Virus record (IMG/VR): IMGVR_UViG_2925939204_000004
Span: 1 to 23,505 of that record
Source: a virus
Lineage: Duplodnaviria; Heunggongvirae; Uroviricota; Caudoviricetes
Strand: one strand, 5' to 3'
Length of the DNA: 23,505 bases
A program made the translations under genes and the position numbers. This document shows positions 8,541 to 23,505 of this stretch, piece by piece. The stretch's first letter is position 1; every line of letters begins with the position of its first letter. A model generated the notes under the pieces. The model made no database searches and was not told the origin of the DNA. It saw only the letters and a program-made list of their open reading frames with translations.

Positions 8541-9719
8541 TTATAAAGAATTGCTACTTTCTAATTCTGGGTTTCTGGATCTATTTTTACAACCTAAATC
8601 CGAGTGGTAATTCGGTATATCGTTTGTCAAATCTTGTTTGATAGCATTAATTAAGATCATTATGTCGAATTTATGCATATCGTCGCCCCCTTCAGACCTT
8701 AGATGTTCGGATGTGGTGAGTTGAGTCGCTAATTTGCTGTTTGGCCCCCACACAATATTATTTTCGAATTTTCCTTCATGCATTCTGTTATTATATATAC
8801 AGTATTGTCTAATGTTTAATGCACTGGCTAAATGTACAATGGCAGTATCTACAGTTATAACAAAATCAGCATGGCGAACCAATGCAAATGAACATCCGGC
8901 ATCAGAAAATGGAGATAGAGACACATTATCCAATCCATTGTGATTAATCTGTTTTCCCATATTAAAAACTATTGTGTGATATCCCTTAAGGTTATTAAGG
9001 TAAGCTAGTACTTTGTTTATCTGTTCATCAGATAAGGTTCTGCTATTCTGAGAGCCATAAGGGTTAAATATAACTAATTTTTTGTTTTTCTTCCTGAATT
9101 CATTTGCAACAATATTTGCTGGTTCATATATTTTGTTGTCAAAATTAAGCGCTGCAGCATAATTATTATTTTTTATCTTTAGTAAAGATAAAACTTTTTT
9201 CATTCTTTCAGATGTGTGAATGGAACGATTATCGATTATATTTGTATCAAAAATAGTTACGGCAGGATGATTAAAACAGATAGAGTGTTTAGGTCTAAGT
9301 AAATGTAGTGTTTGCAATCTGGTTATCGCTGTGTTATCAAAATTTGAGAAGTCAACAACAAGATCTACATTCAGTTTTTTTATCTTTGCTTTTAGTTCGT
9401 TAAATTTATTTTTCTCGTAAGATATAAAGGCATCCACGCCAACAATATCAGTAAAGAGGAATGATACTCTTGAAGGTGCTATCACATATACCACCATACC
9501 GGATTTTTGAAGTTGTTTAATAAACCCTGAGGTAACGATGCCGTCACCAATGGCTTGCATGTGCATGAAAATGCACACTGTTTTATAACTATCCGGCTGT
9601 AATGATGTTTTCCTTCTGTATCGCATTTTTAGAAATGCCAGTCTGGCCTTCGTCTTTATCTTTTTTGTTTTAATATTTCGCTGTCTGTTAAGCTGTTTTA
9701 ATGATGAAATAACATTCAT
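8541..9719 (-). CDS. GT9-like (heptosyltransferase-fold) glycosyltransferase, AT-rich cargo
   Basis: Very AT-rich ORF. N-terminal VCIFMHMQAIGDGIV...VYVIAPS and C-terminal KKLVIFNPYGSQNSRTLSDEQ and ADFVITVDTAIVHLASALNI resemble GT9 motifs. Start uncertain: the tracked ORF begins at TTG 9779 and the ATG at 9719 has only a weak SD. Confidence 0.5.
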   Translation of the reverse strand: MNVISSLKQLNRQRNIKTKKIKTKARLAFLKMRYRRKTSLQPDSYKTVCIFMHMQAIGDGIVTSGFIKQLQKSGMVVYVIAPSRVSFLFTDIVGVDAFISYEKNKFNELKAKIKKLNVDLVVDFSNFDNTAITRLQTLHLLRPKHSICFNHPAVTIFDTNIIDNRSIHTSERMKKVLSLLKIKNNNYAAALNFDNKIYEPANIVANEFRKKNKKLVIFNPYGSQNSRTLSDEQINKVLAYLNNLKGYHTIVFNMGKQINHNGLDNVSLSPFSDAGCSFALVRHADFVITVDTAIVHLASALNIRQYCIYNNRMHEGKFENNIVWGPNSKLATQLTTSEHLRSEGGDDMHKFDIMILINAIKQDLTNDIPNYHSDLGCKNRSRNPELESSNSL

Positions 9720-10413: not shown

Positions 10414-11480
10414 TATGCAAGCCTCACAATATAGTTAAATGCGATGTTTTTTACGGTGTTTTCCGCGTTGCCATAAGCGGCAATGGTAATGGTGTGTGTG
10501 TGCGAACCAATAGCGAGCGTATGTGTATGCGCACCTATTGCTACTGTGTGAGTATGAGCTCCTGCGCTTAATACGCGATTACTTGCTGTCTTGCTTGTGT
10601 TAGTTGCATGCATTCCACCACCGGTACCGGGAGTTTCTGCGTATGCTGAAGTATTGTTGTAAGCAAAGTTGTGTGTATGTGCTCCGGTGTTATTTGTGGA
10701 TTTAGTTCCGTAATCAAACGACGATGTGGTTTTCGTCCCCAAATCCGTACTGGATGCGCTGGCGCTGTGGGTGTGCGATTTAATGCCGTCCTGTTCCTGA
10801 GACAATACGGCCCGACCACTGGCAGGTTTGCCCTTAATCGTCCAGCCACGCATATCAGGGATCACGCCTGACGGATAAGCGACTGCAAGTTTCGGGTAGG
10901 CAGATTTGTCAAAAGTCTGCCCCTGCATCAGGGCATAACCAGACGGAACGGTATCCGATGGCCACGGGATTGGTGCGCCAGGCGGATAAAACTGCTCTGA
11001 TGGCGTATAGAGTGAATAAACTGTACCGTCCGTTAACCCTTCCGGCTTATTAGCAGAATATGCTGGTGACGGATGAATCGTTACGCTGGCATTACTGGTA
11101 TAATCCCATTGAATATTTACACCAGTCGCATAATTTCCGATTGCAACGTAAATATCGTAAGTATCACCAGATGTATTGACCCAGGCAAAATTTGTAAACC
11201 CTGCCGATGTGCGCTGCCATAAAGCACCAGTAATCCCCTTCGGATTACCATTACCTGCACGCAAAACAATTTCAGATATACCTGCCTGTTGAGGTGAACC
11301 GACGTTATATCCAGCGCCACCAATCAACGTAATTGAAACAACAGAACTCGCCTGTGGCATGGTTACCGTTGCTAATTTGAACCAACCAGCACCACCTCTG
11401 AATGACATTGTTGTTGAGTTAAGCGTACCAATATCTTTCGGTGTCAGTGTTATATCCGCTGAAAGCGCCTTACCATTCAC
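10413..11480 (-). CDS. Tail fibre protein, C-terminal receptor-binding region; N-terminally truncated relative to P2 gpH
   Basis: C-terminus carries [24 protein letters not shown] fibre repeats. The ORF opens only with GTG 21 nt after an in-frame stop. An ATG-AGT (Met-Ser) start sits right after the I stop but hits a stop after 6 codons. Confidence 0.55.
10470..10565 (-). repeat. Tandem degenerate coding repeats (about 24 bp, HTHT-x-AIG units) inside the tail fibre gene
   Basis: Three consecutive units visible in both the DNA and the translation. Confidence 0.4.
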
Positions 11481-11504: not shown

Positions 11505-12467
11505 TTAATCGTCCGGATAAATGGTAATGACTTCACCGTCGTAAGTTGCTGCCGCCGCGAAAATATCCCCCGGAATTTCCTGAATGATATTCAGCCCTGT
11601 CATGTGGCGGCTGACCGGGCGGGCATCAGCAATCAACCGCTCCATTTCCAGATACATTTCCTCCGTCACGCCACTGTCCAGCGTGCCGACTTCAACGGTA
11701 AATGTTCCCGGTTCTCCGCCGAACTCCCACCACTCAGACACGCGAATGAGGTATCCCAGCGGCTCAATGGCCCGGCGCAGTGCGCTGATGGTTCCTTTGT
11801 GTCGGTGTATCAGCCATGCATCACGAATCACCTGTCGCTTTGTCTCTTCCGGCCAGTTGCGATCCCAGCGGTCAACGGAAAACGCCCAGGCGAGATAAGG
11901 CAGCAGATGCACCGGGCAGGTGTCCGGCGACCACAGCGTGTTGAGGTCTACCGGAATGTCTGTAACGTCCTGAAGCAGCTTGTTGGTGCTGAAGTTGGAC
12001 TCATCTGCGTGAGACGTGCCGTTGAAACCGATCATGATGCGGTCAAGCGCCACCTGCCGGGCAATCTGTGTGCTGACGCGTGACTGAAAATCAGGGTGTG
12101 CCGCCCAGGCATCAAGCTGCGGATACGAAATAAACGTGTCGTAGTTCACCTGTTCGCACTGATATTTACGGTTTTTCAGATCAACCACGTTATTCGGGTT
12201 ACGGCGTTTTGTGCCGTCATAACTGGTATTCGTGCGCGCAATCGGCCCGGTGGTGTCCAGGAGGATTTTTTCGCCTTTCTGGTCGGTCACACCGAACACG
12301 TTAATTTTTTTTGTAAATTCAGTGCTCTCCTTTACTGCGTTTTCAAAACGCTGCTGCACCGAGGGTTCCACGGTAAATCGCGATACCAGTGCAGATACCG
12401 GGATGTTGTTAAGCGACGCCTGCTGCGCCATATAGCAACCCAGCTTGTTGCGGGTAATATCTGACAT
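11505..12467 (-). CDS. Chimeric ORF: N-terminal half of major capsid protein gpN fused in frame to tail protein gpI (deletion remnant)
   Basis: Residues 1 to about 172 resemble gpN (FTVEPSV, RKYQCEQVNYDTFISYPQLDAWA, IMIGFNGT). From about 11965 downstream the protein resembles gpI (LWSPDTCPVHLLPYLAWAFSVDRWDRNWPEE, LGYLIRVSEWWE, MERLIADARPVSRH). Confidence 0.7.
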   Translation of the reverse strand: MSDITRNKLGCYMAQQASLNNIPVSALVSRFTVEPSVQQRFENAVKESTEFTKKINVFGVTDQKGEKILLDTTGPIARTNTSYDGTKRRNPNNVVDLKNRKYQCEQVNYDTFISYPQLDAWAAHPDFQSRVSTQIARQVALDRIMIGFNGTSHADESNFSTNKLLQDVTDIPVDLNTLWSPDTCPVHLLPYLAWAFSVDRWDRNWPEETKRQVIRDAWLIHRHKGTISALRRAIEPLGYLIRVSEWWEFGGEPGTFTVEVGTLDSGVTEEMYLEMERLIADARPVSRHMTGLNIIQEIPGDIFAAAATYDGEVITIYPDD

Positions 12468-13339: not shown

Positions 13340-13499
13340 AGTTTTTGCCCCTCTGACTGGTTCTTCAGTCATGATGGCAAAGCGTAACAGGCTGATACAA
13401 AGGGCTTTTGTTGTAAGAAAACGGCCAGAACAGGGGGTTAAGGAGAACGGTTTCGCGCGCGGGTAATCTTCCTGTAGCGATCTTGAATCATGGTGGTAT

Positions 13500-14105
13500 G
13501 TGCAGGATGGCAAGGATGCGTTCCAGTTTCGCCCTGGCAAAGTGTGCCACCTGATGAATCCTGACATTAACCAGGAAATCTACGGCATGCCGGAATATCT
13601 CGGCGCATTACTCTCGGCCAGCCTGTCTCATTCGGCGGACATGTTCAGAAAACTGTATTACGACAACGGATCCCACGCCGGGTGCATCATCTACATCGGT
13701 GCAGCGCAGGTAAACCGCGAAAGCATGGACTCCCTGAAAGAAACGCTACAGGGTGCACGTGGTGGCGGTGCGTTTAAAAACGTGCTCATTCATGCGCCCA
13801 ACGGGGGCAAAGAGGGGGTGCAAATTTTGCCGTTCCAGCAGATCACCGCAAAGGATGAGTTCATGAATGTTAAGGCGGCATCCCGTGATGATGTGCTGGC
13901 TGCGCACCGCGTTCCGCCGCAACTGATGGGGGCGATGCCGGGTGAAAAAAGTGCGTTTGGTGATGTGGAGAAGGCCGCGCGGGTTTACGCAATTAACGAG
14001 CTGATGCCCGTCATGGAGGCCATGAAGCACATCAATGACTGGCTTGGCGAAGAGGTGATCCGCTTTAACCCTTACGCACTGTTAGATACCCAGCCCACAT
14101 CCTGA
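13500..14105 (+). pseudogene. Portal protein (P2 gpQ family), C-terminal fragment of about 200 aa
   Basis: Contains PDINQEIYGMPEYL and RDDVLAAHRVPPQLMG portal motifs but begins with GTG only 160 bp from the divergent O start. There is no room for the N-terminal portal half or for the terminase gene P. Confidence 0.65.
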
Positions 14106-14638: not shown

Positions 14639-15157
14639 TCATTCGAAACTGGCAAGAATCTGTTCTCGAACAGAAGATTTCATCGTTAACCCACGATCTA
14701 GGAAAAATTGGAAATGCATTAAGGCTTGTTGTTTGTGTATAAGTCTCCTGCGCACAGCCTCTTGAAGTAGCCCTCCGTGGCGGGCGGCTTTTACACCGCG
14801 TTCCGCACACGTTTTATAAACCGCATTATCCGCCGAAAGACATGTTGCATCATGTATTCTCGCGTTAACAACGCAGCTTATGTCCGCATACTTCAATGCT
14901 CTCCTGCGATTTTTTATCTCAGCCATTTCAATAAAATGTTCAGGTTCGTAATCATTGGTGAAATTGTATGGAAGTTGCAGGCGTGTAAGCTGTTCCTGAA
15001 CATCAAGATTGTATTTAGCTTTTAGTTCCTCGCAGACATAGGGGTCAATCCACACACCACCCGGGTAAATTTGCCAGATAATATCTAAGCATTTACCTTC
15101 GTAAAAATCAGACAGTACATTCGTATCGATAACACATCTGGGGCATTCAAACGGCAT
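14639..15157 (-). CDS. PIN-like (VapC/DUF4411-like) putative nuclease; toxin or effector candidate
   Basis: Starts at ATG 15155-15157, overlapping the upstream gene's stop by 11 nt. N-terminus CVIDTNVLSDF with downstream acidic residues (CEELK, IHDATCLSADN) spaced as in PIN folds. AT-rich. Confidence 0.6.
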   Translation of the reverse strand: MPFECPRCVIDTNVLSDFYEGKCLDIIWQIYPGGVWIDPYVCEELKAKYNLDVQEQLTRLQLPYNFTNDYEPEHFIEMAEIKNRRRALKYADISCVVNARIHDATCLSADNAVYKTCAERGVKAARHGGLLQEAVRRRLIHKQQALMHFQFFLDRGLTMKSSVREQILASFE

Positions 15158-16292
15158 CCTCTCCGGCCTCCTGTTCGTCGTACCATTCATCCAGAAGATT
15201 GCTGAGAGCTTTTCTGTCTAATTCTAAAAGTTCAGATATGAAGGTTTCCGACGCGGAACCGGCTTCCCATGCTTTACGCGATAAGACGGTTAGGCGACCT
15301 TTATAATTTAGTGCTTCCCTAATGGGATTTGGCTCGTGTCTCTTCCAACCTTTACGATTGGCGGTTGCCCATAGGTATCTAGTGTTTTGTTGATTAATTA
15401 AATTACATTTACTAAGACGATCGATGATGCAAGTGGCTGATACTCTGAAAATGCTTTTTAGTCTAAGGACGGTTTCCTCATACGCCCATCCACCACCTTG
15501 CATGACGAATTGTTTTCGCAATGCGCTTTCTGGTACCAAAAAACAAGCAGCAAAGTGATTAGCAACTTTTTCTTCCGGTGAAATTGCTTTGCCATTAGTT
15601 TTATAGCTTTTAGCAGGGCCATGATACTCATCACGGTGGAAGATAAGATGAGCATATTCATGGCAAATACTGAAGATTTGACGTTCTATTGAAATGCTGT
15701 CGTGAACATTTACATAAATCGCGGTACCGTATTTGTTCGAAAACGCAGAAAATCCGAATACCATCCCTTTATCGGTTTCTTCGCGATTGAACGGGATTAC
15801 TCGAATATCCGATGCTTCCAAAATGGCTACAATGTCACCAACGCAAGTAGCGTTTCCTATACCAAGACGGAAACGTTCTTCCATAGCCTTATCTTCGACT
15901 CTTCGCAAATCTTCTGCTTTGGCGGTAAAAATAGGCATTGAGTTAGGAAGATCTTCTGGCAAATTAGCATCAGCAGCTTCCTCAATTGCATTGATATTTT
16001 TTAACTTTTCAATCAACTCATTGCGAAGTTTGGCATCCAACAAATCCGGACTATCTGCTCGCATTGCAAAACGAAACTCGCCATCATCTTGCTCATAAAA
16101 ATACCCGATAGGCTTATCGAAAATCTTGCAGAGCATGATGAGTTGGGTAACGCTTGGGACGCCTAACGCCTGCTCAAACTTACTGTAGGTTTGACGAACA
16201 ACACCGATCGCATCTGCGACGGCGCTTGCACTCATTCCCGCGTCGTTTCTGGCCTGAACCAAGCGTTCTGCTATACGCTGTTGAATGTTCAT
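15147..16292 (-). CDS. XRE-family HTH fused to an ImmA/IrrE-type (COG2856/M78) zinc metallopeptidase
   Basis: N-terminal HTH (QRIAERLVQARNDAGMSASAVADAIGVVRQTYSKFE) and an intact HEXXH motif in SICHEYAHLIFH. AGGTGA SD precedes the start. AT-rich. Confidence 0.7.
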   Translation of the reverse strand: MNIQQRIAERLVQARNDAGMSASAVADAIGVVRQTYSKFEQALGVPSVTQLIMLCKIFDKPIGYFYEQDDGEFRFAMRADSPDLLDAKLRNELIEKLKNINAIEEAADANLPEDLPNSMPIFTAKAEDLRRVEDKAMEERFRLGIGNATCVGDIVAILEASDIRVIPFNREETDKGMVFGFSAFSNKYGTAIYVNVHDSISIERQIFSICHEYAHLIFHRDEYHGPAKSYKTNGKAISPEEKVANHFAACFLVPESALRKQFVMQGGGWAYEETVLRLKSIFRVSATCIIDRLSKCNLINQQNTRYLWATANRKGWKRHEPNPIREALNYKGRLTVLSRKAWEAGSASETFISELLELDRKALSNLLDEWYDEQEAGEDAV

Positions 16293-16446
16293 ACGTCACC
16301 TGAATTTAACAATGGTGGCTCTTATGGGTTTAGATTGGTTAATTATTACTAACATTATGAATGGAGAGTTGCAAAAATCATAGTTAAATTATGCAAATTT
16401 CATGGAGCGTGATGTGGTGTGGGTTCACACTCTCTGCTGATTACAT

Positions 16447-16467
16447 CCAGGGCGGTTTCCGCCCTGG
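16447..16467 (-). terminator. GC-rich hairpin (CCAGGGCGG ttt CCGCCCTGG) after parR
   Basis: Perfect 9-bp stem 7 nt after the ParR stop; no U tract. Confidence 0.3.
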
Positions 16468-16473
16468 CTCTGC

Positions 16474-16785
16474 TTACTCAGGAAATAGCGCCCGGATATT
16501 TCCGGCCATCTGACTGGTTATCTGTGCGGTTGGTACTGGCTGTGACACGGGGCGTTCTGTCCTGGTTTGTGTCACGGATAACGCCTCATCGTCAGCCCAT
16601 GCAGCCAGTCGGTAAGCCTCTGCCGGATTCATTTTCAGAAGTGCCAGCCCGGCCAGAAAAGCCACGCGTTGGCCGCTTTTGCGGGCTTCTGGTGTAAGGC
16701 TGTCCAGCCAGGCGCATGCTTCGCCTTCGTTCTTGACGGCGGCGGGCTTCAGATAGAAACTTATCCGTCTGGTTGGTGTCGTCAT
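16474..16785 (-). CDS. parR: ParR/StbB-like centromere-binding adaptor
   Basis: Start at ATG 16783-16785 with AAGGAG SD, 4 nt after the parM stop. N-terminus RRISFYLKPAAV...AWLDSLTPEARKSGQRVAFLAGLAL resembles the ParR ribbon-helix-helix region. Confidence 0.65.
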   Translation of the reverse strand: MTTPTRRISFYLKPAAVKNEGEACAWLDSLTPEARKSGQRVAFLAGLALLKMNPAEAYRLAAWADDEALSVTQTRTERPVSQPVPTAQITSQMAGNIRALFPE

Positions 16786-16789
16786 TGGT

Positions 16790-17749
16790 TTACTCCTTGT
16801 CCATTGCGTACAGCCCATTAACCAGAGCAAACTGTGGCACCCCGTCCGCGATGAAAGTCGCATTAACTCCGCAGGCTTCGCGGATAGCGGGTGCCACAAT
16901 CTCCGCCCCGCCACCGACAACCATCACCCGCCCGTAACCCGAAAAATCCGCCAGCGCGCGGATCACGCGTTGTTTCAGTGTTTCTTCCTTTTCACGAATA
17001 ACCGCCATCAGGCTGGCGTAATGCGCGTCATTGTGGATGTGCTGGCGCAGCCAGGCTTCATCATGGCGATGTTCGATAATGGTATTGGCGATGTGGTGAC
17101 TGGTGCGCATACCGTTAGTGGCCATCACCGACAGTACGGCATCGGCCATCAGAGAAACGCCTACGTGTGGATCGCAAAACACCTGGCTGATACCTGCCAG
17201 TTGCCCCTGAACCTTTGCCACATCCAGCGTGGTTCCGCCCAAATCCACAATCAGCAGGGATTCAAACGGACTCATGTCAGCCAGTGCCTTAAAGCCAGCC
17301 GGAATGGATTCAGGCATAACCCGCACGTTACGGATAGTGAATGCCTCACCGTTCTGGTACTCCACCGGGCGCATGACGTTCGCTTTTTTGCGGTTGATGT
17401 TGGCCATGTCCGGCTGTGCGTTTGTGTCGAAATATTCGCTCAGTGGCAGGGTGACAACCACATCCACCTCCTGTGGCGTGATGCCTGATTTGACCAGCGC
17501 GTGATGAATGGCAATGACATTCACATCGCTGTACTGGTATTGCGTGTCGGTCGTCTGGACAAAGCGATCGCTGACCGGATCAAAACCATAGCGCACGCCA
17601 TCAAGCATGTAGTTCGCGGGCTGCGTGCCACCGAACGGCGCAGACCATTCCGACTTGAAGCTGTTCGGGCTGATGGCGTTGCGGCGTTCGCCGTTCTCAG
17701 TCCATGCCAGCTTGATGTTGGTGGAGCCGTCATCGATACAAATTTTCAT
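16790..17749 (-). CDS. parM: ParM/StbA actin-like partition ATPase
   Basis: MKICIDDGSTNIKLAW...ISPNSFK...YQYSDVNVIAIHHAL...VMPESIPAG...LIVDLGGTTLD...VVGGGAE aligns along its length with plasmid R1 ParM from memory. Confidence 0.85.
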   Translation of the reverse strand: MKICIDDGSTNIKLAWTENGERRNAISPNSFKSEWSAPFGGTQPANYMLDGVRYGFDPVSDRFVQTTDTQYQYSDVNVIAIHHALVKSGITPQEVDVVVTLPLSEYFDTNAQPDMANINRKKANVMRPVEYQNGEAFTIRNVRVMPESIPAGFKALADMSPFESLLIVDLGGTTLDVAKVQGQLAGISQVFCDPHVGVSLMADAVLSVMATNGMRTSHHIANTIIEHRHDEAWLRQHIHNDAHYASLMAVIREKEETLKQRVIRALADFSGYGRVMVVGGGAEIVAPAIREACGVNATFIADGVPQFALVNGLYAMDKE

Positions 17750-21117: not shown

Positions 21118-21276
21118 CTACGAGTAGTTATTGCTGGCTTGAGGTTCATTTCTGTTTAATTCCGTGCATGCTGTAGAAGAAATCAAAAGTGTTAATCCAT
21201 GCTCATCGCGGTATGGGTAGAACGCCGCCAAACGCTCAAAATCCGCTTGCTCGTATGTGTTCAAGAGCTTTGTCAT
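21118..21276 (-). CDS. Small ORF (52 aa) in the cox position; uncertain
   Basis: ATG 21274-21276 to TAG 21118-21120, first ORF divergent from C. Weak SD and no resemblance to Cox. Confidence 0.2.
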   Translation of the reverse strand: MTKLLNTYEQADFERLAAFYPYRDEHGLTLLISSTACTELNRNEPQASNNYS

Positions 21277-21367: not shown

Positions 21368-21679
21368 ATGTCAAGTGGGTACGAAAAAAAACTGAAAGAG
21401 ATACGGAAAAGTGAAGGGTTAACTCAAGCTGAGTTTGCAGATGTTACTGGGATAAATCTCGGAACTATAAAGAATTATGAGAGCGGTAAAAGAGAGGTTG
21501 GTTTAAGCGTTGTTGATCGCGTAATTAATTCTAAGGATTTCGAAAAATACACTATATGGCTTATGACGGGAAAAACAAATGAGGCTGCTGGGCAGATCAG
21601 TCCCTCTCTCTCCCCTGATGGGCCAGAAAACACATCGTCTTCTCAAAAATCCCGCAAGACTGGTACACAGCCCGGCTAA
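21368..21679 (+). CDS. C: Immunity repressor (P2 C-like, HTH)
   Basis: Translation has LTQAEFADVTGINLGTIKNYESG, TIWLMTGK and GQISPSL, resembling P2 C. GGAGA SD upstream. Confidence 0.8.
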   Translation: MSSGYEKKLKEIRKSEGLTQAEFADVTGINLGTIKNYESGKREVGLSVVDRVINSKDFEKYTIWLMTGKTNEAAGQISPSLSPDGPENTSSSQKSRKTGTQPG

Positions 21680-21728: not shown

Positions 21729-22706
21729 ATGAGCATAAAATCAATTCCGGGAGGGTATCTTCTTGACATGCGCCCTGAGGGGCGTAAAGGCAAACGCATT
21801 CGCAAAAAATTTAAAACGAAATCGGATGCAGTTTTATATGAGCGGTGGGTGCTGGCGCAACAGCATAACAATGAGTGGAAAGGAAACTCCATTGATCGCC
21901 GTCCGCTGTCGGTGCTTATTGACTTGTGGTGGAAATACCACGGCCAGCTAATGAAGTCAGGGCATAACACGCGCCTTAAATTGCTGCGCTTGAGTGAGGC
22001 AATGGATGACCCGTGTGTGCATAAACTTAATACAACGATGCTCACCGAGCTACGTGTGTCCAGGATAGAGCAGGGGATACAGCCCAGCACCATTAATCGA
22101 GAGATTGGGGCGTTAAGCGCGATGTTTACCGCACTCATCTCATCCGGCCATTTTCTTAACGATAACCCCGTTCAAGGCCTTAAAGGAATGAAGGTTAACG
22201 AGCGCGAAATGGGATATCTGAGTAAGTCTGAATGTGTTCAGTTGCTGGATGCACTGGCTGAAAATCCCGATGAACGGCTGGCTGTCGAAATCCTTCTGTC
22301 GACCGGGGCGCGATGGGGCGAGGTAGCGGCACTGGAGCAGCGCCGTGTTCTTCATTGTCGAATCACTTTTTCAAAAACGAAGAACAGCAAAAACCGTACC
22401 GTTCCTATTTCTGAAAGCCTGTTTGAAAAGATCAAAAAACGGGGCGGGAAACTGGTGTTTCCGACGCTGGATTATCCATTGGTTCGCGATGTCATCAAAA
22501 CGGTCGCACCTGATGTTCCTGACGGCCAGGCTGTTCATGCGCTGCGCCACACCTTCGCCAGTCATTTCATGATGAACGGCGGCAATATTCTGACGCTCCA
22601 GAAAATTCTGGGGCACGCAAAGATTCAGACAACGATGATTTATGCCCATCTTGCGCCGGATTACCTGCAGGATGCGGTGAGGTTTAATCCACTAGGAGGT
22701 GCTTAA
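21729..22706 (+). CDS. int: Tyrosine integrase (P2 Int family)
   Basis: Starts MSIKSIPGGYLLDMRPEGRKGKRIRKKF; C-terminal catalytic region LSTGARWGE...HALRHTFASHFMMNGGNILTLQKILGHAKIQTTMIYAHLAP with the catalytic Tyr. Confidence 0.9.
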   Translation: MSIKSIPGGYLLDMRPEGRKGKRIRKKFKTKSDAVLYERWVLAQQHNNEWKGNSIDRRPLSVLIDLWWKYHGQLMKSGHNTRLKLLRLSEAMDDPCVHKLNTTMLTELRVSRIEQGIQPSTINREIGALSAMFTALISSGHFLNDNPVQGLKGMKVNEREMGYLSKSECVQLLDALAENPDERLAVEILLSTGARWGEVAALEQRRVLHCRITFSKTKNSKNRTVPISESLFEKIKKRGGKLVFPTLDYPLVRDVIKTVAPDVPDGQAVHALRHTFASHFMMNGGNILTLQKILGHAKIQTTMIYAHLAPDYLQDAVRFNPLGGA

Positions 22707-22708
22707 GA

Positions 22709-23071
22709 GTGAAGTTTCATTTAGATGAACTTAAAAGAATGGCAACGCTCGATAATTTTGCGCGTTTTCTCAATGAGTCGTCTACGAATGAAAAATGTTT
22801 GTCGTGTGGCGATACGGATATGTACATGTATTTGACGAATATTGTTGAGGTGGGGCCTGAGCCGAAAACTGCTGAGGAGTGTGATTTAGGCACTTTTGTT
22901 ATGCTTGATTACATCGGTCCATTTACTGGGTATCCGGGATATGAGGGACATGATCGGGAAAATATCCATAACTATGAATTCCGACTTACCTGTAACAGAT
23001 GTGGGTTTGTTCATCGTTACTCGGCCCGGGCCTTTATGAACTGGGTAGGCAAGCAGGGCGATGACAAATGA
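22709..23071 (+). CDS. Hypothetical protein with two CxxC pairs (zinc-ribbon-like), coupled to int
   Basis: GTG start 2 nt after the int stop, with AGGAGG 9 nt upstream inside the int 3' end. CLSCGD ... CNRCGF. AT-rich. Confidence 0.5.
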   Translation: MKFHLDELKRMATLDNFARFLNESSTNEKCLSCGDTDMYMYLTNIVEVGPEPKTAEECDLGTFVMLDYIGPFTGYPGYEGHDRENIHNYEFRLTCNRCGFVHRYSARAFMNWVGKQGDDK

Positions 23072-23505
23072 TGCCGGACAGTGCTTCTATTTTACCGTTC
23101 AGAAAAAAGAAAGAGAATGCCTATAATGTATCCAACAACCAAGTAACAGGAAGTGGTAATGATGGAGGTGATGGCATGAATGACGACCTTGAACGGCGGG
23201 TCAGTTGCCTGGAAAGTGATGTGACTGAAATCAAAAACAACCTGATTACTCTCACCACAAGAAGCGAATCCTTTGCTACCAAATCTGATGTACTGGAGAT
23301 TCGCGAAGGGTTGAGGCTTGAGATGGCAGAATCGCGCCAATCCCTGAAGTCTGAGATGGCTGATTTACGCCAGTCTCTGAAAGTTGAGATGGCTGAGCAT
23401 CGTACTGAACTTCAGAAATCATTTGCAAATCAGACTTGGTTACTCACAGGTATTGTCCTGTCTGCGATGGCCGTGCTTGTGGCTGTGGTTACTGTTATTA
23501 AGTAA
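23068..23505 (+). CDS. Hypothetical coiled-coil protein with C-terminal transmembrane anchor
   Basis: ATGA overlap with the upstream ORF. Repeated LR.SLK.EMAE heptad-like units, then WLLTGIVLSAMAVLVAVVTVIK at the C-terminus. Ends at the window edge. Confidence 0.5.
   Translation: MMPDSASILPFRKKKENAYNVSNNQVTGSGNDGGDGMNDDLERRVSCLESDVTEIKNNLITLTTRSESFATKSDVLEIREGLRLEMAESRQSLKSEMADLRQSLKVEMAEHRTELQKSFANQTWLLTGIVLSAMAVLVAVVTVIK

Follow-up and report, generated by a model that had tools for sequence, protein, structure and literature searches.

We analysed a 23,505-nucleotide stretch of DNA (hereafter the window), the virus record IMGVR_UViG_2925939204_000004, which holds a P2-like prophage of Escherichia coli, and concentrated on two small genes that follow its integrase gene, int, at the right-hand end (Table 1). 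The lysogenic operon opens with the gene for the immunity repressor C, labelled as a helix-turn-helix (HTH) protein in identical genomes, and continues with int. Open reading frame 1 (ORF1) starts 2 nt past the int stop codon (TAA, 22704-22706), and ORF2 starts over the ORF1 stop in the sequence ATGA (23068-23071) and ends exactly at the last position of the window. An earlier sequence-only reading of this DNA had described ORF1 as a GTG-initiated gene for a 120-residue protein with two CxxC pairs, beginning 2 nt after int and with its AGGAGG inside int, and ORF2 as an ATGA-coupled gene for a 145-residue coiled-coil protein with a C-terminal membrane anchor. We confirmed the first description in full from the sequence and the second from the sequence, an AlphaFold2 (AF2) model and hydropathy. 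Its statement that both genes are AT-rich was borne out in moderate form (41-46% GC, compared to 48-53% for int and about 55% for the host gene btuC). We take ORF1 and ORF2 to be real genes rather than chance reading frames, because both match PHROG families, have homologues in several genera (Escherichia, Shigella, Salmonella, Klebsiella, Citrobacter and Providencia) and are under purifying selection. As set out below, the two genes are phage cargo in an exchangeable cassette, and they represent a recurrent module of temperate phages.

Table 1. Features of the window discussed in the text, in window coordinates.
Feature	Position	Strand	Basis or remark
Immunity repressor C (HTH_3), opening the lysogenic operon	21368..21679	+	Pfam HTH_3, 2e-10
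int, P2-type tyrosine integrase	21729..22706	+	Pfam Int_N, 1.5e-28; Phage_integrase, 8e-20
Shine-Dalgarno sequence AGGAGG of ORF1	22694..22699	+	Read from sequence; within the int coding sequence, 9 nt 5' of GTG
ORF1, predicted soluble 120-residue zinc-ribbon protein (C30xxC33 ... C95xxC98, W112)	22709..23071	+	phrog_4293, 3e-30; GTG start
ORF2, predicted 145-residue tail-anchored coiled-coil membrane protein	23068..23505	+	phrog_9415, 4e-39
ORF2 N-terminal tail, 36 residues, variable, predicted disordered, ending in the Gly/Asp/Asn run GSGNDGGDG	23068..23175	+	Predicted local distance difference test (pLDDT) score < 50
GGAGGT, then 6 nt later an internal ATG (Met37, 23176), possible second start of ORF2 giving a 109-residue form	23164..23178	+	Sequence
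ORF2 beta-layer motif S-F-A-T-K-S-D-V, residues 68-75	23269..23292	+	Conserved in homologues
ORF2 hendecad repeats LRLEMAESRQS / LKSEMADLRQS / LKVEMAEHRTE, residues 76-121	23293..23430	+	49% self-identity at lag 11, <=13% at other lags
ORF2 predicted C-terminal transmembrane anchor, residues 126-144, LTGIVLSAMAVLVAVVTVI	23443..23499	+	Mean Kyte-Doolittle hydropathy 2.65 over 19 residues
Truncated cox-like gene; 1.64-kb deletion with junction at 21193/21194	21118..21276	-	Alignment with strain 165; junction string unique in the window
IS1A insertion	676-1373
D/VgrG fragment	1602-2402
Fusion of tail gene I to capsid gene N	about 11964-11966
Portal fragment	13476-14105
PIN-domain protein and large HTH protein	14639-16292	-	Between replication gene A and the portal remnant
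ParM-like and partition/stability genes	16474-17749	-	Between replication gene A and the portal remnant
Family 9 glycosyltransferase	8541-9719	-	Inserted among tail genes

The sequence-only reading had regarded both genes as cargo foreign to the canonical P2 genome, with the proviso that they could belong to the host if the attachment (att) site lay within 22690-22710, and it had proposed a comparison with an empty site. We made this comparison by aligning both lysogen junctions to the uninterrupted ihfA-btuC interval of E. coli K-12, and found both genes inside the prophage, between int and the att site. Host homology restarts only at GGCCGCTCTGCGGCCTTTTTTCTTT, the intrinsic terminator of ihfA, about 125 bp past the ORF2 stop codon. 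This terminator is the 25-bp att core, and a second copy of it is found at the ihfA end of the prophage; the two copies fall just outside the window (L001 9032-9056 and L007 about 10475-10500). The insertion point of the prophage is the ihfA terminator, on the upstream side of btuC, and since integration duplicates the core, ihfA retains its terminator while the prophage operon gains one just upstream of btuC. A 906-nt region of this locus recurs at 100% identity in 19 complete genomes of E. coli, chromosomal every time, and in strain 165 it sits between a P2-like prophage and btuC. Because host homology restarts only after ORF2, both genes are phage cargo; this status and their co-inheritance (see below) are near certain. 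The K-12 alignment and the duplicated core refute the host-gene alternative, and they rule out an att site within 22690-22710, a position that instead marks the left edge of the cargo.

This edge became apparent from other prophages at the same site. The 3' end of int is shared by 299 E. coli genomes; the pair follows it in 85 of them, and in the remaining 214 similarity to the window is lost at 22680-22705, around the last int codons. On the right, all variants become identical again 16 nt past the ORF2 stop, from ATGATCCACAAAGTGACCAC, and remain so through an attP arm of about 110 bp to the core. Positions 22690-22706 therefore form a recombination boundary, and the cargo cassette that begins there is sharply bounded and exchanged among otherwise near-identical prophages. 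Six alleles occupy the slot between identical int ends and attP arms. In a census made with a concatenated query, for which 60 evenly spaced rows were sampled from 298 genomes, 29 rows carried a pair: 17 had the window type, five the L005 type, four the L045 type, two the L004 type and one the L047 type. All five of these consist of a zinc-ribbon gene followed by a gene for a tail-anchored coiled coil, and they have diverged strongly from one another. The other 31 of the 60 rows carried an unrelated single gene of the O104:H4 type, the commonest allele at the site, which is found in O104:H4, O111 and O55:H7 strains. It encodes a soluble protein of 131 residues (L003 4115-4510 in E. coli O104:H4 C227-11) that has no match in Pfam or PADLOC. 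The int-att interval of P2-like phages was reported in 2026 to be a minor defence hotspot, holding 3% of P2 defence systems, and was argued to be mobilised with the phage (PMC13586616). Our pair shares its position and phage group with the systems described there, but those are recognisable by DefenseFinder and PADLOC, whereas the pair matches none of them and is not named in that study.

The two genes also travel together elsewhere. Among 48 loci examined, an ORF2-type gene lies directly after the ORF1 homologue, overlapping or abutting it; the exceptions were a contig that ends too early and an allele with the same architecture whose partner had diverged too far for the profile hidden Markov model (HMM). 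Pairing is thus obligate in the sense that it is kept in every locus with enough downstream DNA. Pairwise identities of ORF1 and ORF2 covary (Mantel r 0.86, a value reached in none of 2000 permutations), which shows co-inheritance and possibly reflects co-evolution. We found the pair in three genomic contexts: as C-int-ORF1-ORF2-attP in P2-like elements of E. coli and Klebsiella; as cI-X-Y-ORF1-ORF2-int in another P2-like group; and, between tail genes, in an Arc/Ant/KilA-N accessory island of Salmonella phage SPN3UB (gp24/gp25), phage 29485 and Klebsiella ST101-KPC2phi6.1. The module is an obligate two-gene pair of many temperate enterobacterial phages and not a single acquisition. The case for homology of the siphovirus ORF2 partners comes chiefly from their architecture and from their synteny with clear-cut ORF1 homologues, because an hhalign comparison of window-type and siphovirus-type ORF2 covered only the C-terminal 30 columns (93.7% probability). 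In one locus with the repressor-pair-int order (L033 2403-5726), the pair is preceded by genes for a 209-residue protein with a C-terminal hydrophobic segment and a very acidic 81-residue protein, and a repeated GNxxRxxGRDxNEN motif is common to the C-terminus of the repressor and the start of the next protein.

A terminator scan found no candidate in the 2-nt gap between int and ORF1 or in the overlap of ORF1 and ORF2. Two weak consensus matches lie inside coding sequence, one in int (on the minus strand) and one in the transmembrane region of ORF2, and the only strong terminator downstream of the pair is the att core. Co-expression of the pair with C and int is strongly suggested by this layout, because it lacks terminators and gaps, because the start/stop coupling is conserved, and because the linkage to a repressor and int recurs in two gene orders. 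Rfam gave no match at threshold around the locus. A promoter-like sequence, TTCAGA-18 nt-TATAAT, is present at 23098-23127, in the coding sequence of the ORF2 N-terminal tail and upstream of Met37; the region holds six such matches, compared to 3.6 in shuffled sequences, an excess that is not clear.

ORF1 is a predicted zinc ribbon of its own family, zinc binding being read from its conserved knuckles. These are C30-L-S-C33 and C95-N-R-C98, and across 89 family members the four cysteines and W112 are the only invariant residues. The protein has no hydrophobic segment (maximum hydropathy 0.57). An exhaustive profile HMM search returned 204 clusters at 50% identity, all of them stand-alone proteins of about 50-180 residues; no informative fusions were found among them, and the Pfam matches of ORF1 family members were to generic zinc ribbons only, including one to Zn_ribbon_Com. 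The AF2 model of ORF1 was mediocre (pLDDT 62), and fold searches with it gave no significant match. ORF1 changes much faster than its partner: the ratio of nonsynonymous to synonymous substitution rates (dN/dS) is 0.28-0.63 for ORF1 and 0.02 for the ORF2 core, at similar dS. Variation is found in the loop between the knuckles (about residues 40-88), where one allele has a dN of 0.217 that exceeds its dS of 0.112, which suggests either diversifying selection or a recombination patch.

In the AF2 model of ORF2, residues 1-32 are disordered and residues 36-144 form one helix. Sequences of the form [aliphatic]-A-T-K-[polar]-[DE] form beta-layers in trimeric coiled coils and occur in DUF1640 membrane proteins (Hartmann et al., 2016, PMC4786415). 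ORF2 carries F-A-T-K-S-D at residues 69-74, a motif diagnostic of trimeric alpha/beta coiled coils, with Phe replacing the aliphatic residue, together with a C-terminal transmembrane segment. The beta-layer motif is followed by hendecad repeats whose copy number differs between alleles, and indels among homologues are multiples of 11 residues. A C-terminal hydrophobic segment is kept in all homologues, and in ORF2 a single Lys follows it. Based on the predicted helix, the hendecads, the beta-layer motif and the transmembrane segment, ORF2 most likely forms homotrimers of a tail-anchored alpha/beta coiled coil; it would face the cytoplasm, because it has no signal peptide and only one residue after the membrane segment. 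A viral fold search with the single-helix model of ORF2 returned nothing. One homologue (L040 4293-4982) has a near-identical FATKSDLQN, the seventh of its kind, ahead of six tandem [FT]ATKADLQx nonads, a natural beta-layer repeat run comparable to those that Hartmann et al. engineered.

There are two candidate start codons for ORF2. Most database entries begin the protein at Met37, and the 109-residue version is the commonest cluster. Met37 is nearly invariant, and a Gly-rich run stands right before a Met in 23 of 24 unique ORF2 homologues. In all homologues the Gly codons render this stretch similar to a Shine-Dalgarno sequence, and since every Gly run has this property, a ribosome-binding signal and Gly-codon composition are inseparable here. 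The long frame is open in all diverged homologues, starting at or over the ORF1 stop, and its first 36 codons have a dN/dS of 0.15-0.17. By eye, the tails share a weak motif, hydrophobic-x-[FY]-P-basic, and in one allele the internal Met is missing altogether. Based on the conserved frame, the low dN/dS of the tail, the shared motif and the Met-less allele, we consider the long 145-residue form to be real; a second, shorter isoform may possibly be made from Met37.

Searches of Pfam, NCBIfam and PADLOC with the two window proteins gave nothing above threshold, and the PHROG families to which they belong carry no functional annotation. With PADLOC-DB 2.0, the window proteins and three sister alleles matched only unrelated long coiled-coil proteins (E about 2e-5 or weaker), which we regard as coiled-coil noise. 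Profile searches of the PDB likewise returned zinc-knuckle and coiled-coil noise only, the best ORF2 match being an engineered coiled-coil construct (E 0.024). In a phage collection there was no DNA match to the window pair and no tblastn match to ORF2, and ORF1 had four weak tblastn matches, all in Klebsiella; plasmids held no match to the window pair. A genome-contig scan with a narrow alignment found only two species representatives. Our literature search found no paper on the pair, on its accession numbers, or on DUF1640 or XhlA in prophage defence.

Two families came close to ORF2 without reaching their cut-offs. For DUF1640/CCDC90-like proteins (PF07798; cut-off 33.5 bits), window ORF2 scored 10.8 bits (E 0.44) and the best sister allele 26.5 bits, and 7 of 24 ORF2 family members had sub-threshold matches. 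The likeness lies in an A-T-K-x-D coiled-coil stalk followed by a C-terminal transmembrane helix, and NCBI names sister alleles at the same locus DUF1640; the ORF2 family differs in its Gly run with Met, its variable N-terminal tail and its constant position after a zinc-ribbon gene. We know of no function for bacterial DUF1640 proteins. For XhlA (PF10779; cut-off 34.7 bits), window ORF2 had no match at E<=1, and 5 of the 24 family members had sub-threshold matches, the best with 28.3 bits (1.6e-6). XhlA of the Bacillus prophage PBSX shares its predicted build with ORF2: both are small phage proteins in which an N-terminal coiled coil leads to a transmembrane helix at the C-terminus. It is a membrane protein required together with the holin XhlB and the endolysin XlyA for PBSX lysis (PMC5589764). 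Its gene precedes that of the holin in a late lysis cassette, whereas the pair lies in a lysogenic operon or accessory islands and has a zinc-ribbon partner.

By layout, the pair resembles two-gene exclusion modules. RexA and RexB of phage lambda, one cytoplasmic and one in the inner membrane, share a transcript with the immunity repressor in the lysogen and are accessory to the phage's own life cycle. Our pair would share with them the combination of a soluble and an inner-membrane protein in a lysogenic operon, co-transcription with the repressor being suggested here by the operon structure. RexB, however, is polytopic, whereas ORF2 has one predicted C-terminal helix and a long, presumably trimeric coiled coil, and the two systems have no sequence relationship: no Rex family was found in Pfam at E<=1, and no Rex model matched in PADLOC. 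Gp30 and gp31 of mycobacteriophage Butters reportedly form a prophage-expressed defence system of a cytoplasmic and a membrane protein encoded beside the integrase/repressor region, with gp31 polytopic; here too the likeness is one of analogy, as hosts and sequences are unrelated. Among the toxin and antitoxin families of Pfam and NCBIfam, none matched ORF1 or ORF2, so that similarity to toxin-antitoxin systems is confined to gene layout. The only toxin-antitoxin name in the family outputs was a sub-threshold MqsA_antitoxin match of the HTH region of the C repressor.

The pair has persisted in a prophage that is otherwise heavily decayed. The window matches AR_0128-type genomes along its whole length and shows an IS1 insertion, truncated D and tail-fibre genes, a deletion that fuses tail gene I to capsid gene N, and a portal fragment. 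Compared to strain 165, a 1.64-kb deletion has removed the 3' part, or most, of cox along with early genes (DUF4761, DUF4754 and others), and at least six complete genomes have this same configuration. The Pe/Pc region and the C-int-ORF1-ORF2 block are intact and identical across strains. Judging from these genes, a prophage without cox should be locked in lysogeny with the promoter Pc unopposed. The pair is intact at 100% identity in such heavily decayed prophages. In E. coli O39:NM F8704-2 (L006 3990-4812), a deletion that removed C and int fuses a fragment of baseplate gene W to the middle of the ORF1 AGGAGG, and ORF1 and ORF2 are left intact beside attR. Retention of this kind fits a function that is either beneficial to the host or addictive.

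We propose, tentatively and at somewhat less than an even chance, that the pair is an obligate cargo cassette that acts as an exclusion module, by analogy with RexAB or with toxin-antitoxin systems; the mechanism that follows is our best guess. The sequence-only reading, largely right in its main point that the genes are cargo, had likewise thought of expression from the lysogenic C-int transcript and of a possible membrane-acting exclusion or defence pair. The genes would be transcribed from Pc as C-int-ORF1-ORF2 up to the terminator in the att core, so that the lysogen would produce both proteins. The AGGAGG inside int would serve translation of ORF1, and ORF2 would depend on coupling at the ATGA and perhaps additionally on initiation at Met37. 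The ORF2 homotrimer would hold its stalk and flexible N-terminal tails in the cytoplasm and its three C-terminal helices in the inner membrane, and ORF1 would be its cytoplasmic zinc-ribbon partner, with the fast-evolving loop as a specificity surface. ORF1 may then sense some component of a superinfecting phage, or be titrated by it; the XhlA/DUF1640-like ORF2 would thereby be released or activated, and would perturb the inner membrane and abort the infection, or block genome entry. It is possible, though doubtful, that the pair is in the full sense a previously undescribed anti-phage system of temperate enterobacterial phages. A zinc-ribbon sensor of hypervariable sequence would then govern an effector, a trimeric and tail-anchored alpha/beta coiled coil with kinship to XhlA and DUF1640, perhaps with two ORF2 isoforms, begun at the coupled start and at the Gly-run/Met37 start, that act in the manner of a holin and antiholin.

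Several points weigh against the exclusion account. No PADLOC model matched beyond coiled-coil noise, and half of the prophages at the site manage without the pair (census of 60 of 298). Transcription in the lysogen is read from the gene layout, and a single C-terminal helix would be a minimal membrane effector. Linkage by itself may account for the Mantel correlation, decayed prophages could have kept the pair as a hitch-hiker beside att, and the high dN/dS of ORF1 comes from one allele pair and could stem from a recombination patch instead of positive selection.

Retention and gene order could also be explained by prophage addiction or stabilisation of the toxin-antitoxin type, unconnected with phage defence: ORF2 would act as a toxin at the membrane and ORF1, encoded upstream and translationally coupled, as the antidote, and loss of the element would be penalised. 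The genes are small and overlapping, with the soluble partner first and the membrane protein second; they are intact in decayed prophages and even after loss of C and int; and the prophage of strain 165 has a hok/gef toxin gene at its other end. We nevertheless think this unlikely. The pair is not similar to known toxin or antitoxin families, an integrated prophage locked by a cox deletion needs no addiction system, and the rapid swapping of alleles and the fast-evolving ORF1 loop fit an arms race better. Addiction and defence are in any case compatible, as many toxin-antitoxin pairs act as abortive-infection systems.

The pair could alternatively serve lysogenic conversion of the host envelope, with the ORF2 trimer scaffolding or inhibiting an inner-membrane machine (for transport, division or stress signalling) and ORF1 acting as an adaptor. 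The architecture is similar to that of DUF1640/CCDC90 membrane scaffolds and other tail-anchored coiled coils, expression would be from the lysogenic operon, and the same degraded prophage has other host-modifying morons such as the family 9 glycosyltransferase. No search pointed to a host partner, however, and the exchange of five very divergent alleles and an unrelated gene at a reported defence hotspot is more typical of conflict systems, so that we consider conversion improbable.

The sub-threshold XhlA matches raise a further idea, which we find quite implausible: that in the lytic cycle of the phage itself the pair times lysis or is a holin accessory. The model for this would be XhlA, which is encoded ahead of the holin in the lysis cassettes of Bacillus prophages and is needed there for lysis. 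Window ORF2 itself lacks such a match. In none of the contexts found does the pair adjoin a holin and endolysin or any other lysis gene; it lies in repressor-int operons or in immI-like accessory islands. Half of the sister prophages do without the pair, and prophages that are no longer able to lyse have retained it. To our knowledge, P2 itself has no genes between int and att, which also counts against a part in lysis. Finally, that ORF1 is a regulator of integration or lysogeny, a Com- or Ogr-like nucleic-acid-binding zinc ribbon that acts on int, att or ORF2 translation, is suggested by its tight linkage to int (on either side) and by weak, generic matches of its family to nucleic-acid-binding zinc ribbons, one of them Zn_ribbon_Com, but is very improbable given that siphovirus accessory islands carry this pair well away from any integrase, that no DNA-binding family matches at threshold, that prophages sharing this int work although their slot holds an unrelated gene, and that the obligate membrane partner would be left unexplained.

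What is new here is that a two-gene module, recurrent and so far uncharacterised, is recognised at a minor hotspot that was described only recently. Of the six alleles that fill the int-att slot at a single integration site in E. coli, five are versions of this one module, which also turns up in unrelated siphoviruses. Should the pair exclude phages, it would be a new compact system and would provide a first function for bacterial tail-anchored coiled coils of the DUF1640/XhlA type, and the anti-phage reading, if true, would link a holin-accessory fold to abortive infection expressed by the lysogen. If it has no such activity, it would be an ordinary pair of prophage morons. The pair should be easy to test, as it is small (0.8 kb) and comes with a natural allelic series and with strains that do or do not carry it at the same site; E. 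coli AR_0128, SE11 and strain 165 are natural carriers.

Other cargo was seen in these prophages. The hok/gef family toxin gene of strain 165 lies between attL and ogr (L007 10761-10901) and is a second small membrane-toxin cargo beside att. In the window, the glycosyltransferase gene among the tail genes is likely a lipopolysaccharide-modifying moron. The interval between gene A and the portal remnant (14639-17749) is the classical P2 defence hotspot. It encodes a PIN-domain protein with a large HTH protein, which may form a toxin-antitoxin or defence pair, and then ParM-like and partition/stability genes, which may make up a segregation system of plasmid type, here in a P2-like phage.

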